A DNA stretch of 64,000 nt from NCBI GenBank assembly GCA_963700145.1, contig OY969474.1:3392001-3456000 (forward strand), given 5' to 3'. Positions 1-61,742 of this stretch are shown in pieces. Position numbers and translations under genes: made by a program. The notes under the pieces were generated by a model. That model was not told the DNA's origin. It saw only the letters and a list, made by a program, of their open reading frames with translations, and ran no database searches. How positions within the stretch are numbered: the stretch's first letter is position 1; the number at the start of each line of letters is the position of its first letter. Origin of the DNA: an uncultured Acidobacteriota bacterium. GTDB taxonomy: Bacteria; Acidobacteriota; Thermoanaerobaculia; Multivoradales; UBA5704.

Positions 1-501
1 GTCGGCGACAAGGGCTACCACAGCAACGCCGTACTCACCGGGTACGAGGCCCTGGGCATTCGCACCTACATCTCCGAGCCCAAGCGCGGCCGGCGCAACT
101 GGCGCGGCAAGACGGCGGCGCAGCACGCCACCCACGCCAATCGGCGCCGCGTGCGCGGCGCGCACGGCAAGGCCCTGCTGCGGCGACGCGGCGAGGTCCT
201 CGAACGCAGCTTTGCCCATTGTTACGAAACCGGCGCCTTGCGCCGAGCTCATCTCCGAGGACGGCAGAACCTCGCGAAACGAGTGCTGGTCCATGCGGCG
301 GGCTTCAATCTCGGCCTGGTGATGCGCCGGCGCCTTGGGCGCGGCACGCCACGGGGGCTGCAGGGCGCCATGGGGCGGGCTTCCGCCGCTCTTTGTGACC
401 TCCTGGGCACCCTCGGGCGTGCCCTCCTCGACCTCCGGTTTCAATGGAGCCCGCACATCGTGATCGGTTGGCTCCACGTACCCCGTACGGTCGCGGCCTG
501 A
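1..501 (+). mobile_element. 3' part of a DDE transposase (IS1182/IS5-like), truncated by the window start
   Basis: Frame +1 is open from base 1: VGDKGYHSN...ERSFAHCYETGALRRAHLRG...HAAGFNLGLVMR. The DKGY and ERSFAH motifs are typical of DDE transposase C-termini. Confidence 0.85.
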
Positions 502-537
502 ACCAGGACCGAGGGCACTTCCACCACGGGCTGCTAG
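502..537 (+). mobile_element. Probable right end of the IS with a CTAG target site
   Basis: ...CCACCACGGGCTG|CTAG (CTAG at 534-537). GC content drops and an HD-protein frame (LECLLLVYAAFLHDMGM) begins exactly here. Confidence 0.55.
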
Positions 538-2840
538 AGTGCCTGCTTCTCGTATATGCGGCCTTTCTCCACGACATGGGAATGGTCGTAACAGCTACTG
601 AGCGCAATCGGATCCTGTCCTCTCCTGAGTTCCAGGACAGCATACAAGACTGGCCGGCGCTGGCTACGGCTTATTCTCAGGTGCGTGATCAGCTGAGCAA
701 AGCCAAGGATGCGGATCGTCTTGTCCTTGAGCTCTTCTTATATCAACTCCAGGAGGCAGCGCTGGTCGCATACTTGCGCCCGCTCCATGCGAGTGTGCAG
801 CGCTATAATGAGCTGTGCAGCCAACTTCGCCTCAACTCAAACTACCCGGACCTCTTTAGCTTTCGCGGAGTATCATTCGAAAGTTGGTTGGTCGACATCT
901 GCGCAAGCCACAACCTCGACGCCTCAGTCCTCAGCGAATCTGCGGACGCCTACAACGATCGCTTTCCACGAGACTTGACAATCGCGCACGAGAAGGCAAA
1001 TGTGCAGTTTTGCGCTGCCCTGCTCCGGTTGGCTGACATCTTGGATTTTGACCGAGAACGCACTCCACGGATTCTCTTTGAGAGCCTCGGGATCGCTGAG
1101 AGTGGCTTGCCTGGAGCTGAGGTATCGCTTCAGGAATGGGAAAGACACCTGGCTGTTCACACGCTTGAACTCCGTGAGGACGAACTGCTGGTCAGCGCCG
1201 AGTGCCGTCACCCCGCGATCGAAAAGTCTATTCGCGACTTTTGTTCGCTCATTGAGCGTGAACTTCGCGACACGTTGGCTGTACTAAAGCGAAACCCGCC
1301 CGAGATCCTCAGTCGCTATTCCTTCGAACTTCCGGTGAGTGTCCGTCCACGAATTACCTCCGTGGGGTACTCGTACAAGGACTTAGCTCTACGGCTGAAC
1401 CAGTCTGCTGTCATGTCGCTGTTGATGGGAGACCGACTCTATACACATGCAGGCGTCGCGCTGCGTGAGCTCCTTCAGAACGCTCTGGACGCGTGCGACG
1501 TTCGGCGGCGGCTTCACCATGAGACCAACTACACGCCGTCGATTCAAGTCTTAACAACTGTCGATCGCCTCGGGAGGCTGTGGATCGAGGTAGCAGACAA
1601 TGGTATCGGAATGGACGAGCATGTGTTGAGCGACTATTTTTTGAAGATCGGTGACACGTACTACGATTCTCCCGAGTTCAAACGACAATTCGCGAGGCTA
1701 CAGACGGTCGCGTTGCCATTCCAACCGATATCGCGCTTTGGTATTGGAATCGTGTCTGTCTTTATGCTCGCGGATGTTCTGGAGGTTCAGACGAGTAGTG
1801 CATTTTCGCCGCGCCAGGACACGCGAGGCCGACTCGTTAGAATCGAACGACTTGGTGGCTTAGCCTTTGTGACCGAACAGATGAGGCCAGAGTATGGCAC
1901 CACTATCCGCATTCGACTTCGAAGCGACATTGCCTCTGGATTAGACAGATTTTTCAACGAAGCAACGAACTACCTTCGATGGCTTGTACTACGACCTGCA
2001 TTTCTAATTCAGCTCCAGCTGGGAATAGGAACGCCAATCTTTTATCTCCCGGGAACGGATGGTCTATTCTTTACGGTATCGCGCAAAGGGGTAGAGTTAT
2101 ATGGCCGACGAGGCTATGAGGTGGTCACTATTGAGCTGGAGCGATGGAGCGATCGATTATCGGGCATCGTTATTCTTGTTTTCGCAAAGGATGGGGAAGG
2201 GCGATTGACGACCAAGGAGGGCTCTCGGCGAATCGCTTTTGATCCAAAGGATCCACAGCAGCTGAATCCGTTGACACTTGTTCCTGGATTTCGCGGTAAT
2301 CGGCTTACGGTGAGCGGTTTTCGAGTCAAGACGTTTCGCACGCGCAATTCTTCTCGTTTATGGCCGCAGCCGACGATCGGGTACGCGCTTTGCCTTTCTG
2401 ATTGACGCTGAGGCCGTGGGCAGTAAGGAAGTAGAATTCGATGTCTCGAGGGAGCGACTGACACACAGGGGAGAAGCTTACCTTCGAAGCGAGATCCAAA
2501 CGACCGTTTTGGCTTCCCTCATCGATCTTGGAGTTATGGACCGTTCGACACCGAGGCAAGGCTTTCCCTTTCCCCGACACGGAAGGAAATAGAGGAAGTG
2601 CGGGCCCGCCTTTCGACTTCTGACCGGAGACCGGATGCTCTCCAGGAACTCTTCGCCGCTGTCCTAAGGGCCCTTCCTTCGGGCCCATGGCCAAAGGGCC
2701 TGCATCACCAGATCGCGAGTGAATTGGGCATAAGCAGGAACCTCGTCTCAAAGGTGATTTCCAACTTGCTTGCATCAGGTCTTGCAGTAAAGGCCGAGTC
2801 TGCAGAGACGGATCAGTCGCCAATACTGAACGAAGAATAA
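534..2840 (+). pseudogene. HD-domain (HD-CE-like) + Hsp90-like GHKL ATPase protein with C-terminal wHTH; 5'-interrupted by the IS and carrying two frameshifts
   Basis: HD motifs LHDMGM, CASH, LRLADILD. GHKL motifs LRELLQNALDA, DNGIGM, SRFGIG, GTTI. After about 2340 the plausible protein continues in frame +1 (EFDVSRERL), then returns to frame +3 near 2545 (PWPKGLHHQIASELGISRNLVSKVI, HTH-like). Confidence 0.75.
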
Positions 2841-2872: not shown

Positions 2873-2940
2873 GACGCGCCGCGTTGCGATAAGGGCGGTG
2901 CGCCGCCGGCGGAGGTCAGATCTCCGCCGGCGGCCGTTGT
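2873..2940. repeat. 68-bp conserved hairpin element, copy 1
   Basis: GACGCGCCGCGTTGCGATAAGGGCGGTGCGCCGCCGGCGGAGGTCAGATCTCCGCCGGCGGCCGTTGT matches 40992-41059 at 66/68. It contains the 13-bp stem GCCGCCGGCGGAG/CTCCGCCGGCGGC. Confidence 0.9.
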
Positions 2941-2946
2941 GTCAGG

Positions 2947-3345
2947 TCAGGAGGTGGGCGGCGAGGTCGCCGGCGGCGGCGTGGTGGGCGCCGGGGGCGT
3001 GGTCGGCTCCTCCTTCTTACTCGGGCGGCGGCCGCCGCGGGGCTTGACGAGGAACTCGCGGAGGGTCTGGCTCTTGCCGCCGAACCAGCCGCGCAAGGCG
3101 TCGCGGATCTGGGTGCGCAGCTCGAGGCCGCGGGTTTCCTGCCTGCGCCGGCTGTCGTTGGTCTCCCGCAGGCGCGCGTTGTAGACCTCTTGCTGGGCTT
3201 CCAGCGAGCGGCAGGCGAGGAGCCAGGCTTCGAGGTCGGCCTGGAGGGGTTGGATGTGGGCCGGCAGGTCGGCCAGCTTGGCTTTGAGGTTGACGTTGAG
3301 GGTGTCCATCTCGGTCAGCAGCTCGAGAAACGACTCTCTGGCCAT
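2947..3345 (-). CDS. Small helical/coiled-coil protein with basic Pro-rich tail (132 aa); paralog of 41067-41444
   Basis: SD GAAGGAGAG precedes the ATG at 3345. Shares DLEAW, ARLRETN, ALRGxFGxKSQTLREF and KKEEP with the paralog. Confidence 0.85.
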   Translation of the reverse strand: MARESFLELLTEMDTLNVNLKAKLADLPAHIQPLQADLEAWLLACRSLEAQQEVYNARLRETNDSRRRQETRGLELRTQIRDALRGWFGGKSQTLREFLVKPRGGRRPSKKEEPTTPPAPTTPPPATSPPTS

Positions 3346-3436
3346 GAAGGGCTCTCCTTCGGTTGGTGCGTTGGTGGAAGACGTCGGAACGGCGGGGATC
3401 AGGCGGGGGGGAAACGGGCTTCTGCCGGGGTCAAGC

Positions 3437-3621
3437 GTACTTTCGCCCGGTACGCCCGTACTGTCCCTCGGTACAAGCGTACTTTCGGCCGGTACATGCG
3501 TACCGGTCGACGGTACAAGCGTACTTTCGGGTAGTACATGTGTACTGGCCGGCGGTACAAGCGTACTTTCGGGTAGTACATGCGTACCGGGCTCCGGTAC
3601 GTGCGTACTGTTCAAAAGTAC
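3437..3621. repeat. 21-bp-period array of GTAC-N4-GTAC-N9 (18 GTAC sites)
   Basis: GTAC at 3437, 3450, 3458, 3471, 3479 ... 3597, 3605, 3618, with strictly alternating 13/8 spacing. Confidence 0.95.
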
Positions 3622-3697
3622 GCTTGCCCGGAGCTGCGGGGCGCTTGCCCCGGCGGTCTTCATAGCCGGAACTTGGGCATAAGACTGCCTCCTTTCC

Positions 3698-4105
3698 TCA
3701 GGTTCGGTCGTTCCAGATACCGGTTGCCGCCAGCATGGCGGCGAGCCGGGTGTCGAGATCGGCGAGGGACATGGGGCCGCGGGTGAGGGCTTGGGCGAGC
3801 TCGACGTCGGCGCGGGTGACGGCGCCGACCGCCGGGGTGGTGAGCCGCAGGGTGAGACGCAGGCCGGAGAGCTCGACGCGCAGGTCGCGGCGGTGGGACT
3901 CGGCCGTGAAGACGACGAGCATCGCGGCGAAGACGGCGCTGGGGGCGGTGCCGAGGGTGTAGCGGCCGACGAGCTCGCGGTTGCCGCCTTCGGCCTCCCA
4001 CCCGGGCAGCATGCGCAGGCGCCGTGCGAGCTGCCGCGGGCTGAGCGGCTCGTCCGCCCGCTGGCGCGCCCGCGCGGTCTTTTTCCGTGGGCTGGTCTTC
4101 GTCAT
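3698..4105 (-). CDS. Pterin-4a-carbinolamine dehydratase (PCD/PhhB)-like protein, divergent
   Basis: LPGW...RYTL...LRLTTPAVGAVTRADVELA resembles the PCD fold. The catalytic HHP motif is not evident. SD GGAGG precedes the ATG. Confidence 0.6.
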   Translation of the reverse strand: MTKTSPRKKTARARQRADEPLSPRQLARRLRMLPGWEAEGGNRELVGRYTLGTAPSAVFAAMLVVFTAESHRRDLRVELSGLRLTLRLTTPAVGAVTRADVELAQALTRGPMSLADLDTRLAAMLAATGIWNDRT

Positions 4106-4106
4106 C

Positions 4107-4682
4107 TCAGTCCTCCGTGGCGACGGGAGCGGTTTCGAGCGTGCGCACCAGGGCGAGGGCGGCCTGGGTGAGGCGGCCGAGGCGCACCGCCTCGTCCCGC
4201 TCGCTTTCCTGGACGTGCGCGGGCGGGCGAACAAAGCCGAGGGCGGGCATGGCGTGGCCGGCGCCGGCGAGGCACTCCTTGGCCCGCTGCAGTGCGTCGC
4301 CCGCCGCGTCCCACCGTTGCGTCAACCAGCAGGCGTAGGCGACGAGCCCCAAGGCCCAGCTCTCGAGCTCGGCGACGAGCCGCGGGCGCTCGCGCTCGCG
4401 ATCGACCTGGCCGAGGACCTCGACGGCGAGGAGGGCCAGCTCCTCGCCGAGGCCGGCGGCTACGTCCGCCGCCGGCAGGCTCCACTCGAGGAAGAGGGCC
4501 GCGACGGCGACCGTGCGGAACCGCGCTTCGTCCCGGATGCGCCGCCGGCGCTCCGCCGGGGGGAGCGCCAGGAGCTCGGCGACAGCGAGGTCGGCGGCCT
4601 GCCGCTCCGCCGCGAGCCGCGCGACGGCCTCGGCGCGCGTCGCGGCGAGAGGCGTCCACATCTCGGAGAGCCCGCCGTTCAT
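4107..4682 (-). CDS. Short helical-repeat (TPR-like) protein resembling the N-terminal half of 5779-7035
   Basis: LFLEWS...LALLAVEV...VAELESWALGLVAYA parallels LLLEESW...LLAAFAAMV...LADLQARALADLGNA. Coupled to both flanking genes. Confidence 0.6.
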   Translation of the reverse strand: MNGGLSEMWTPLAATRAEAVARLAAERQAADLAVAELLALPPAERRRRIRDEARFRTVAVAALFLEWSLPAADVAAGLGEELALLAVEVLGQVDRERERPRLVAELESWALGLVAYACWLTQRWDAAGDALQRAKECLAGAGHAMPALGFVRPPAHVQESERDEAVRLGRLTQAALALVRTLETAPVATED

Positions 4683-40597: not shown

Positions 40598-40957
40598 TCA
40601 GATCCGCTCGGGCTCGAAGACGGTCCGCTCGTCGACGACGTTGCCGGTGTTGAGCGTGTTTGCCGGCTCGAAGAGCAGGAGCTCCACCTCCTCGTCGGCG
40701 CAGGGCCGGTGCTCCACGCCGCGCGGCACGACGACCATCTCCCCCGGCCCGAGCACCAGCGTCCCGTCCCGCAGCTCCATCCGCAGCCGCCCCTTGAGCA
40801 CCAGGAACAGCTCGTCCTCGCGCTCGTGATGGTGCCAGACGAACTCTCCCTGGAGCTTGACGAGCTTCACTTCCTGCCCGTTCAGCTCGGCGACGACCTT
40901 CGGGGTCCAGTGCTCGCGGATGAGGCCCAGCTTTTCGGCGAGGTTGACTTTGTCCAT
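40598..40957 (-). CDS. Cupin domain protein
   Basis: GEFVWHHHEREDELF, VVPRGVEHRP. Confidence 0.92.
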   Translation of the reverse strand: MDKVNLAEKLGLIREHWTPKVVAELNGQEVKLVKLQGEFVWHHHEREDELFLVLKGRLRMELRDGTLVLGPGEMVVVPRGVEHRPCADEEVELLLFEPANTLNTGNVVDERTVFEPERI

Positions 40958-40991
40958 GGGGACGATGGTACCGTCCATGGTGCTCTCGTTC

Positions 40992-41059
40992 GACGCGCCG
41001 CGTTGCGATGAGGGCGGTGCGCCGCCGGCAGAGGTCAGATCTCCGCCGGCGGCCGTTGT
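40992..41059. repeat. 68-bp conserved hairpin element, copy 2
   Basis: 66/68 identical to 2873-2940, in the same position just 3' of the paralogous gene. Confidence 0.9.
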
Positions 41060-41066
41060 TTTTAGG

Positions 41067-41444
41067 TCAGGCCGTGGGCGCCGGCGGCGGCCCTTCCGGC
41101 TTGGGCGGCTCCTCCTTCTTGGCCGACCGCTTGCGGCCGCGCGGCAGGAAGCCGAACTCGCGCAGCGTCTGGCTCTTCGGCCCGAAGTGGCCGCGCAGGG
41201 CGCCGTTGAGCTGGCTCCGCAGGTCGATGCCGCGCTGCTGGGAGACGCGGCGCTTCTCGTTGGTCTCGCGCAGCCGCGCCTCGAAGATCTCCGTCTGCGC
41301 CTCGAGGCCGCGCGCCTCGGCGACCCAGGCCTCGAGGTCGGTCTGCAGGACGGTCATGTGGGGCGCGTCGGGGAGACGCCCCTTGAGGTTGGTGGAGAGC
41401 CCGTCGAGAGCGACGAGCAGCTCGGGGTAAGACTCGTGGGCCAT
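41067..41444 (-). CDS. Small helical/coiled-coil protein with basic Pro-rich tail (125 aa); paralog of 2947-3345
   Basis: SD GAAAGGAGA; roughly 55-60% identical to the paralog by hand alignment. Confidence 0.85.
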   Translation of the reverse strand: MAHESYPELLVALDGLSTNLKGRLPDAPHMTVLQTDLEAWVAEARGLEAQTEIFEARLRETNEKRRVSQQRGIDLRSQLNGALRGHFGPKSQTLREFGFLPRGRKRSAKKEEPPKPEGPPPAPTA

Positions 41445-41487: not shown

Positions 41488-42022
41488 GGACACGCTCCCG
41501 ATCGACGGGGGAACGCGGGGAAGAAGGTCCGGAAAACGCAGGTGGACGGCCGGAAAGCTCTCGGGTGTCGGGGGAAAGCGGCGGAACAGCGAAGCAACGT
41601 TCTGCGGGCGCGCCGGAGCGCTCTGCGCTGCGCCGGGAGCACGCCGGCGCTCTGTCGGAGCTCGCCGGCGCTCGGGCGAAGGGTTCTGGCGGTGTGCAGG
41701 AGTTGGCAGCGGCCGTCGCGGACCCCGCCGGGAGTCCGCGAGAGGTCGCGCCCGCTCGGCCAGCCGAGTCGTGCGGTCCGCAGGGGCCGGCGCCGCGTCG
41801 CCCGAAAGTGCCCCACGGACCGCCGGAACGCTCCCGCGGCCGCCGGGAGCATTTCCTCGGCGTCCGGGAGATTTCCCGGCCGGCCAAAGAACGCTCCCGG
41901 CCTCTCTGGGAGAATTTCGGGCAGGGTCGGAAAGGCTCTGGCCGGGCGCGGGAGCTTTTCGTCCTGCGCGGGGAGCGTTCCCGGCGTCGTGGGGAGCTCT
42001 CCGGAGCGCTCAGGGAGCTTTT
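41488..42022. repeat. Degenerate 21-bp-period array (about 26 units, core SGGAR, often followed by C)
   Basis: In-phase cores at 41509, 41530, 41551, 41572, 41614, 41635, 41656 ... 41824, 41845, 41866, 41908, 41950, 41971, 41992, 42013. Confidence 0.8.
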
Positions 42023-42145
42023 AGCGTTGACATCGACATCTCATGCGGGCTGATTACAGCCTGTTCCTGGATGTATGTCAACCAACCGGGCAGACTTCGG
42101 CTGAAACGCAAGCCTTTGCCGTAGATCTCAGCGAGCGGCAGGCTT

Positions 42146-61409: not shown

Positions 61410-61417
61410 TTGTCTCC

Positions 61418-61742
61418 GGTCCGAAACTGGTCCCGTTCGGTCCGAGATTGGGGAATTTTGGTCCGAGAATGGTGCCGTTGGGCGGCAGACCGAAGGTCTC
61501 GGAGCGTCGCTGGAGTGTTTTTGGTCCTGAAATGGGGAACTTTGGTCCGAAAATCTACCGCCGGAGGGCCTCAAAACGTCGGATGAGCGGCAGGAGACAG
61601 CGCCGCGGTCCGAAAAGATGTTGGTTTGGTCCGAAAAGATAATCCCGCGGTCCGAAAAGATAAATCTCCGGCGGCCGGCGGGTGAATTCACGGTCCGGAG
61701 ATGGGGGTTTTGGTCCGAAAATCCTCCGGTTCGGTCCGAAAA
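61418..61742. repeat. 21-bp-period array with core GGTCCGA(A/G)A (16 slots)
   Basis: GGTCC in exact phase at 61418, 61439, 61460, 61523, 61544, 61607, 61628, 61649, 61712, 61733. Confidence 0.9.

Follow-up and report, generated by a model that had tools for sequence, protein, structure and literature searches.

Why should a bacterial chromosome carry, twice within one short stretch, a gene for a small helical protein with a helically phased repeat array in front of it and a conserved hairpin behind it, and what ties these parts together? The question is raised by the 64,000-nt stretch of DNA analyzed here (the window), part of a single-contig genome of 5.46 Mb (71.5% G+C) from a soil bacterium of the Thermoanaerobaculia. 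We find that the three-part cassette is the genus-level form of a larger, lineage-specific system, in which a protein family is linked to phased palindrome lattices spread over the whole genome. Our literature searches turned up no description of such a system.

Architecture of the two cassettes

A preliminary description of this DNA proposed two loci with the same three-part architecture and orientation, encoding proteins 55 to 60% identical and sharing a 21-bp array phase and a downstream element matching at 66 of 68 positions. All parts are in place (Table 1). P0001 and P0002 are identical at 61 of 107 aligned residues (57%), the match between the downstream elements was confirmed, and the 21-bp phase is common to both arrays, the second being weaker and degenerate. 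Both small genes lie on the minus strand, with the arrays to the right and the hairpin elements to the left in window coordinates, and each is preceded by a strong AAGGAG site (AAGGAGAG, 7 nt ahead of the P0001 ATG; AAGGAGAA ahead of the P0002 ATG).

Table 1. Features of the two cassettes in the window.
Feature	Position	Strand	Description
Hairpin element copy 1	2873..2940	-	13-bp GC stem, 7-nt loop, 3′ tail
P0001 (paralog p1)	2947..3345	-	132-aa small helical protein (translation)
Leader	3346..3431	-	C-rich, with Shine–Dalgarno site; sense-strand GC skew -0.41
Array 1	3432..3621	.	About nine 21-bp units, 42-bp super-period, GTAC-N4-GTAC / CAAGCG core
Pterin_4a (PCD/DCoH)-like gene	3698..4120	-	Upstream of array 1, same strand
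Cupin gene	40598-40978	-	SD and ATG directly after hairpin copy 2
Hairpin element copy 2	40992..41059	-	66/68 identical to copy 1
P0002 (paralog p2)	41067..41444	-	125 aa (translation)
Array 2	~41500..42030	.	Weaker, degenerate 21-bp-phased tract, (G)GGAGC / TTCC core

Array 1 has a period of 21/42 over 3432-3609 (TRF scores 128-198), with an autocorrelation of 0.82 at lag 42, and its class recurs at three further genomic sites. For array 2, TRF returned two rows (41611-41673 and 41843-41880), and windows spanning the 700 nt ahead of P0002 have their highest peaks at lags 21, 42 and 63. As a separate observation, the P0001 frame stays open through array 1 (ORF 2947-3663), giving a 7-aa repeat.

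A lineage-specific protein family with upstream arrays

A protein search of the genome, together with an HMM built from the matches, identified 16 paralogs and no more, all with a Shine–Dalgarno site and 25 to 56% identical to P0001. Family proteins are 110 to 150 aa long and share a conserved C-terminal half, ARLRE...LRGxYGKRSxxLxEFGxxP, followed by a basic patch and then a Pro/Thr/Ala-rich tail. An RGR-like motif is present in p1-p3 (PRGGRR and PRGRKR) and missing from subfamily B. The family has no match in Pfam, NCBIfam, PHROGs or PADLOC. Searched with a profile, 1.84 billion representatives yielded 1312 clusters at E ≤ 0.001, and nearly all of the best 150 listed among them are 103 to 192 aa long. 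Within the same taxonomic family, 22 of 24 searched genomes carry 2 to 30 matches; none was found in 16 searched genomes from other families of the order or, with the profile, in 200 other genomes of the phylum.

By one fixed periodicity test, an upstream array is present at all 16 paralogs, versus 11 of 400 random gene upstream regions. The period is 21 at 13 paralogs, 20 at p8 and p14, which are sisters by sequence, and 42 only at p4. Every homolog locus in four genomes of the same genus is likewise periodicity-positive (18/18). In other genera the count falls to nine of 42, with none of 14 in genus g3, whose homologs have a conserved nonrepetitive leader and an ordinary terminator (stem plus T-run) in place of the array. 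The preliminary description had named a lack of upstream periodicity or of the downstream element in most homologs among the observations that would count against it; outside the genus most homolog loci are without the periodicity (33/42), within it none is. We considered the array as a coding repeat and rejected this, since the p2 frame is open for only 18 nt upstream and the p8 and p14 arrays have a period of 20.

A strict scan for sigma-70-like promoters across the 34 loci of the genus yielded eight sites versus 0.64 expected, all of them 416 to 533 nt before the start codon and thus upstream of the array; no such site lies between array and gene in these 34 loci. The recurring neighbors of the cassettes are Pterin_4a-like, HTH_3 and TPR genes plus unknowns, and no partition NTPase, replication gene or recombinase is among them. 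The Pterin_4a-like gene of the window matches PF01329 (E 5e-10; 39.8 bits against a gathering cut-off of 26). A relative adjoins eight of the 16 cassettes, and six cassettes have a Pterin_4a-like gene on one side of the array and the small gene on the other, both on one strand. With promoters upstream of them, the arrays are part of the transcription unit, and a protein bound to them would form a roadblock.

Phased arrays across the genome and their classes

TRF detected 132 merged arrays of period 20/21/42/63 in the genome, where a repeat period of 21 far outnumbers every other. According to a crude gene call, 27 of the 132 overlap coding sequence, and about 100 arrays are gene-less. The only sizeable ORF family beside arrays is the small-protein family. 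Genes flanking the remaining 105 arrays are convergent in 25 cases, divergent in 24 and tandem in 56, proportions equal to those of background gaps. The arrays are therefore not general promoter elements, an idea also at odds with the lack of any sigma-70-like site within or beyond arrays 1 and 2. Array density was set against family matches in six related genomes only, with samples of about 400 kb each and the same TRF settings. It was 25 arrays per Mb in the present genome (G000, 16 paralogs), 17.5 in both G010 (30 matches) and G023 (21 matches), 10 in G006 (seven matches), 0 in G022, a genome of the same taxonomic family with no match, and 5 in G031, a genome of another family with no match, where both arrays look coding.

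Arrays were assigned to classes by recurrent 8-mers, a stricter method used in place of single-linkage 9-mer clustering, which had merged unrelated classes. The set comprised 107 arrays, namely the 105 outside coding sequence and the weak p2 and p10 arrays. The thresholds are our own, the p12 array was left out because the gene call scored it as coding, and the p5 array was split from that of p6 although their cores look alike. On these terms the 107 arrays fall into 47 classes, 20 of them multi-member. No two of the 15 gene-linked arrays share a class, and the 10 largest classes have exactly one such array apiece (permutation, P = 4.5e-5); the chance of all being distinct with at least 12 multi-member classes hit is P = 0.0046. 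Eight of the 20 multi-member classes have no linked gene. Both p1-class motifs are present in four genomes (G000, G001, G003 and G004) and absent from G002, which also has no close p1 ortholog, a co-occurrence that carries little weight as the five genomes are kin.

These data bear on the earlier suggestion that each paralog pairs with its own array. The 15 classes for 15 arrays, the travel of array and gene as a block and the selected-looking cores (both described below) speak for it; the eight multi-member classes with no linked gene and the changed core flanks in arrays of p1 orthologs (see below) speak against it. The companion idea that the arrays are generated independently has to be abandoned because they share classes with about 100 gene-less arrays.

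Palindromic cores and signs of selection

Most units consist of a 10- to 18-bp palindrome whose A+T content exceeds that of the genome, and next to it a GC-rich spacer; examples of such cores are GGAAGCTTCC, GGAAAGCTTTCC, GGAGATCGATCTCC, GGATGTATCC, CCGTTACnGTAACGG and GGTATCAGCGCTGATACC, and array GC is 0.51-0.73 versus 0.715 for the genome. In five classes a core of 10 to 14 bp shows 90% conservation or more within arrays and keeps the same sequence from locus to locus, whereas the spacers of these classes are 40 to 70% conserved and differ between loci. The same contrast is seen in gene-less arrays. Unequal exchange should treat all columns alike, so the retention of cores alone points to selection on each core, gene-less arrays included.

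The arrays could instead act as RNA, as a long leader or intercistronic spacer whose motifs bind the protein or another factor and control translation or stability. CsrA-type regulators offer a precedent, with leaders and sponge RNAs that bear repeated binding motifs. The promoters upstream of the arrays mean that the arrays are transcribed; in the six cassettes noted above, the array stands between two same-strand genes; many cores contain GGA; and the hairpin after the gene behaves as RNA. However, the arrays have a strand skew near zero, whereas the leaders beside them are rich in C on the sense strand; this is more in keeping with a symmetric reader of double-stranded DNA than with an RNA signal. 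A crude script count gave 124 sense-strand G-T and 91 A-C at symmetric positions, no clear excess of the former. Cores such as GGAAGCTTCC lack the length needed for folding, gene-less arrays occur in any orientation, no Rfam family was matched, and periods of 20 and 21 in unrelated classes are better explained by DNA geometry or shared descent. We regard a role of the arrays as RNA as quite improbable.

Exchange of cassettes and derivation of gene-less arrays

The cassettes of p5, p6, p7, p10 and p11 sit in paralogous islands of several kilobases with flanks that are 87 to 93% identical DNA, small genes that are 67 to 87% identical and arrays that do not match at all. The islands are mosaics: the XRE genes of p5 and p7 share 99% identity and those of p7 and p10 only 38%, while the TPR-like genes of p7 and p10 are 96% identical. 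We rejected this neighboring XRE HTH protein as the class-specific binder, since the p5 and p7 copies are nearly the same yet their arrays are unrelated, and since it has only six strong members. In G003, the orthologous locus 2 holds a different paralog (p10/p11 type) with a GGGATCGATCCC array, and this cassette stands between the cupin gene plus hairpin and an aminotransferase gene. Array and gene, such comparisons show, are exchanged as one block between conserved flanks. The alternative of a mobile unit, raised in the preliminary description, also finds support, in this replacement of a cassette at one locus and in the existence of gene-less derivatives.

Arrays differ in how well they are kept between species. 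Among p1 orthologs (85% identical), GGGGCAAGCGGGAA units replace GTACAAGCGTAC and CAAGCG is kept, so that the flanks of the core differ; the arrays change in concert. Orthologs of p3 (89-92% identical, 5/5) and of p2 keep the array class, the orthologous array 2 of G003 and G004 retaining the GGGGAGC/GGGGAACG class. Five gene-less arrays of the p11 class have the same fixed left end, array and leader as the p11 cassette and end between the leader and codon 17, one of them retaining a 17-codon stump (BLAST of flanks). They are, to judge from these shared parts, derivatives of the cassette. Shared classes can thus arise by descent alone, which weakens the one-to-one argument; descent alone leaves the conserved cores unexplained.

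The derivation of the p11-class arrays speaks for an alternative in which the arrays, as selfish or neutral minisatellites, are carried along by a duplicating cassette whose protein has a role unrelated to them; class identity would reflect descent and concerted evolution, and gene-less arrays would be dead cassettes. It accords with the fast change of arrays between species, with the finding that convergent gaps hold arrays as often as other gaps and with the g3 homologs, which manage without arrays. One contig that lacks exactly 21 nt of array 1, and has one odd joint, adds weak evidence that unit number varies. Unequal crossing-over alone, however, should homogenize all columns alike, and cores are kept while spacers drift, in gene-less arrays too. 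That all 16 paralogs, at identities of only 25 to 57%, and all 18 loci in the genus have retained an array suggests that it is required in cis. When the flanks of all 132 arrays were searched with the HMM in six frames, no gene remnants beyond known genes were recovered; the stump in the p11 class came to light by BLAST. On balance we consider it unlikely that the arrays are selfish or neutral.

Interspersed bacterial minisatellites such as the mycobacterial MIRU-VNTR and BOX elements resemble the arrays in the dispersal of tandem units over many intergenic or intercistronic sites (here, the 132 merged arrays), in concerted evolution and, tentatively given the single contig, in varying unit number. 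They differ in that the present arrays keep a strict 20/21/42 period across about 20 unrelated cores, with palindromic cores that appear to be under selection, and are tied one-to-one to paralogs of one protein family.

A predicted antiparallel coiled-coil dimer

AlphaFold2, run on P0001 with a 16-row alignment, gave a model (pLDDT 87) with helices at residues 6-22, 31-88 (58 residues) and 93-98 and a disordered Pro/Thr-rich tail. The homodimer model scored 0.65 versus 0.00 for the best control. The score mark was reached by 20 of 30 proteins solved as one-chain pairs and by one of 23 solved single chains, calibration counts that hold only roughly here because our own alignment was used. The homodimer runs agree in at least 96% of contacts, with a partner pLDDT of at least 88. 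The model is antiparallel with a two-fold axis at residue 55, and the protein is accordingly predicted to be a symmetric antiparallel coiled-coil dimer. With the axis at this residue, the C-terminal basic patches would lie at opposite ends of a rod, and the length of this rod, about 85 Å as estimated from the helix, would come near that of a 21-bp unit (71 Å). In the dimer model, the acidic N-terminal half and the basic half are paired; the arginines may therefore serve the coiled coil rather than DNA.

In structure comparison, Foldseek against the pdb set gave no match at E ≤ 0.001, and the best VIA-align score (Z 7.2) was to generic helices only. Profile searches of Pfam, NCBIfam and PDB detected no recognizable DNA-binding domain, only generic coiled coils, and the ESM Atlas returned acidobacterial clusters only and nothing specific.

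One analogy in overall design is to H-NS, Lsr2 and MvaT, proteins of 110 to 140 aa with an N-terminal antiparallel coiled-coil dimer and a flexible basic stretch with an RGR-like motif. The present family is alike in size, in its predicted N-terminal coiled-coil dimer, in the basic RGR-like patch of p1-p3 and in having putative targets richer in A+T than the GC-rich genome. Unlike H-NS and Lsr2, it has no Histone_HNS or Lsr2 Pfam match at E up to 10. It also lacks the folded C-terminal DNA-binding domain of the H-NS, Lsr2 and MvaT proteins, having a tail that is disordered in the model; subfamily B is without the RGR-like motif; and the arrays are discrete palindromes in phase and not general AT-rich DNA.

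Possible roles of the protein and its arrays

Our tentative preference, which we hold as a real possibility rather than the probable outcome, is that every paralog binds one array class, its own, and that the array serves in its autoregulation. Either as a dimer or as several dimers in a chain, a paralog would bind the palindromic cores of its class. As the array lies between promoter and gene, binding would throttle the protein's own transcription in the manner of a roadblock. Gene-less arrays of that class, at other places on the chromosome, would be occupied by the same protein as well. What the data show is the anatomy of the cassettes, the one-to-one correspondence between genes and array classes, selection on the cores, exchange in blocks and where the promoters lie; two things we infer, that this protein is the binder and what binding does.

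A second reading, to our minds somewhat unlikely, shifts the emphasis from the gene to the chromosome. At least 16 coiled-coil dimers, each reading its own palindrome "barcode" at several sites, would provide multi-channel chromosome marking, and protein and barcode would diversify together like incompatibility groups.

Autoregulation through a cognate array invites comparison with plasmid systems in which a repeat array lies beside the gene of its binding protein, as in type II partition parC-ParR (R1 and pSK41), sopC-SopB (F) and P1 RepA-incA. Iteron and centromere systems of this sort have direct repeats of about two helical turns (20 to 22 bp) or of 43 bp, a dimeric protein and an array that overlaps the control region. 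The parC-ParR type is matched here by helically phased tandem repeats (20/21/42) next to a small gene for a putative dimer, by an array in the control region, so that binding would autoregulate, and by coexisting systems that would differ in specificity. In contrast to that type, the present system is chromosomal, with 16 gene–array pairs and about 100 gene-less arrays per genome; its recurring neighbors include no ParM-, ParA- or TubZ-type motor and no replication initiator; and its protein is predicted to be a coiled coil rather than a ribbon-helix-helix or winged helix.

Should each paralog indeed read its own class, the family would constitute a natural library of orthogonal protein–DNA pairs on a very small fold. 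A fold without a known DNA-binding domain would then be a new class of sequence-specific DNA-binding fold, and the system a new way for a bacterium to organize or mark its chromosome. Should the binder be some other protein, the contrast between core and spacer would still indicate that selection for an undescribed function acts on about 100 phased palindrome lattices per genome.

The downstream hairpin

The hairpin element follows seven of the 16 paralogs (p1, p2, p5, p6, p7, p10 and p11), in each case beginning 21 to 30 nt past the stop codon of the family gene. A 47-nt core (2894-2940) is identical after p1, p5, p6, p7 and p10; one mismatch falls in the core after p11, and two of 68 positions differ after p2. 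The full element is about 85 nt long, its left part being lost at 2873 in copy 1, and a sense-strand alignment of 12 distinct copies from five genomes is conserved over about 85 nt, including the loop and flanks. The RNA fold of copy 1 has a free energy of -42.9 kcal/mol (z -3.5). Both stem variants seen, among them the one stem change in copy 2, are G-U on the sense strand (A-C on the other strand), which points to an RNA element. The Shine–Dalgarno site and ATG of the next gene lie within about 20 nt on the same strand in at least four loci (p2, p5, p6 and p10). No U-run or T-run follows the stem, and a scan found no minus-strand terminator. We read the element as a putative intercistronic RNA hairpin, a separate part that probably sets the 3′ end or the stability of the upstream message. 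The preliminary description counted it as the third part of the cassette; nine of the 16 paralogs, however, are without the hairpin, and it reads as an RNA element between genes rather than as part of a DNA scaffold.

A further possibility is that the whole is a mobile or exchangeable gene cassette in which the hairpin serves as a recombination site, in the manner of an integron attC or a site for a hairpin-recognizing recombinase. At locus 1, the outer edge of the element (2873) is the exact point at which synteny with G003 and G004 breaks off and at which the contigs of three runs diverge; the HD-CE/HATPase and small HTH genes (444-2840) are absent from both genomes. At locus 2, synteny ends near the element. 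The cupin gene beside copy 2 is missing in G004, and G003 keeps the hairpin with a different paralog and array. The element is moreover 91 to 93% conserved after paralogs that are only 30% identical. Yet the G-U variants point to RNA, the next gene's Shine–Dalgarno site and ATG stand directly after the element, only seven of 16 paralogs have one and no recombinase is among the recurring neighbors. The cassettes are single and dispersed, not stacked as in an integron with attC sites, and ordinary recombination between conserved flanks can explain the exchange. A recombination site is thus very unlikely in our estimation.

Interpretation as a putative intercistronic RNA hairpin brings the element closer to REP-type intercistronic hairpins, which stabilize upstream mRNA, as in malE-malF. 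Like these it is a GC-rich stem–loop between two genes of one transcription unit with no U-run; an intrinsic (rho-independent) terminator, by contrast, would combine the GC stem with such a run. Unlike REP and BIME elements, which are numerous and lie in the extragenic DNA of many unrelated operons, it has only seven copies in the genome, all after genes of one family, and conservation of about 85 nt extends through its loop and flanks.

Array 1 and its flanks

The reading frame of P0001, the small predicted coiled-coil protein encoded beside array 1, remains open across the array, where it would encode a 7-residue repeat (STHVLPE and similar). The other paralogs lack this open frame, and it is therefore probably a by-product of a 21-bp unit that happens to be stop-free. 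At window 3477 and 3515-3608, exactly 21 nt of the array are missing from one metagenome contig, and another has a 78-nt backward joint. These two contigs hint that the number of units varies between strains.

Between array 1 and the neighboring Pterin_4a-like gene lies a mini-ORF of 6 codons, and the orthologous loci of the related genomes G003 and G004 have mini-ORFs of different sequence at the corresponding place. On the other side of the cassette, the HD-CE plus HATPase_c gene and the small MarR-like HTH gene are missing at the orthologous locus in both G003 and G004, and synteny with these genomes picks up again at position 2873, precisely where the hairpin element has its outer boundary.

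Positions of cassette-associated features (window coordinates, unless prefixed G000:C1, the contig holding the window)
Feature	Position	Strand	Remarks
HD-CE plus HATPase_c gene; small MarR-like HTH gene	444-2840		653 aa (HD-CE plus HATPase_c)
P0001 open frame	2947-3663	minus	
Mini-ORF MPKFRL	3660-3680	minus	own GGAAAGGAGG site
Pterin_4a (PCD/DCoH)-like gene	3698-4120		
Third array-like tract	61410-61740		GGTCCGAAA(A) motifs; partial 21-bp phase; TRF 61603-61663
Five paralogous islands (4-5 kb each)	G000:C1 near 3106000, 3204000, 3388000, 3890000, 2033000		cassettes L005-L007, L010, L011
Gene-less array, p11 class	G000:C1:2297970-2298330		leader and first 17 codons of p11-like gene retained
Array-free homologs	L042, L047-L050, L052, L063		genomes G006, G016

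Neighbors, islands, and separate arrays and genes

Eight of the 16 cassettes in the genome, including that of P0001, are accompanied by a Pterin_4a-like gene (six on the same strand, two divergent), and some copies are shortened to 71 aa. Pterin_4a proteins usually carry a His-His-Pro motif. Because this motif, as judged by eye, is not retained in the copies beside cassettes, they may be non-enzymatic.

The five islands share the gene order TPR-like, XRE, TPR-like, Pterin_4a-like, array, small gene, hairpin, and two to four unknown genes. They are mosaics, with identities of individual modules ranging from 38% to 99%.

Arrays and small genes also occur apart. Downstream of the gene stump at the p11-class array, the sequence passes into an acyl-CoA dehydrogenase-like gene. 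The third array-like tract shares its class with no fewer than four arrays elsewhere in the genome, and this class has no linked small-protein gene. The array-free homologs of the genus represented by G006 and G016 have a conserved leader of ~130 nt, a canonical terminator (GC-stem plus T-run), and an Ala/Lys-rich helical tail replacing the Pro/Thr tail.
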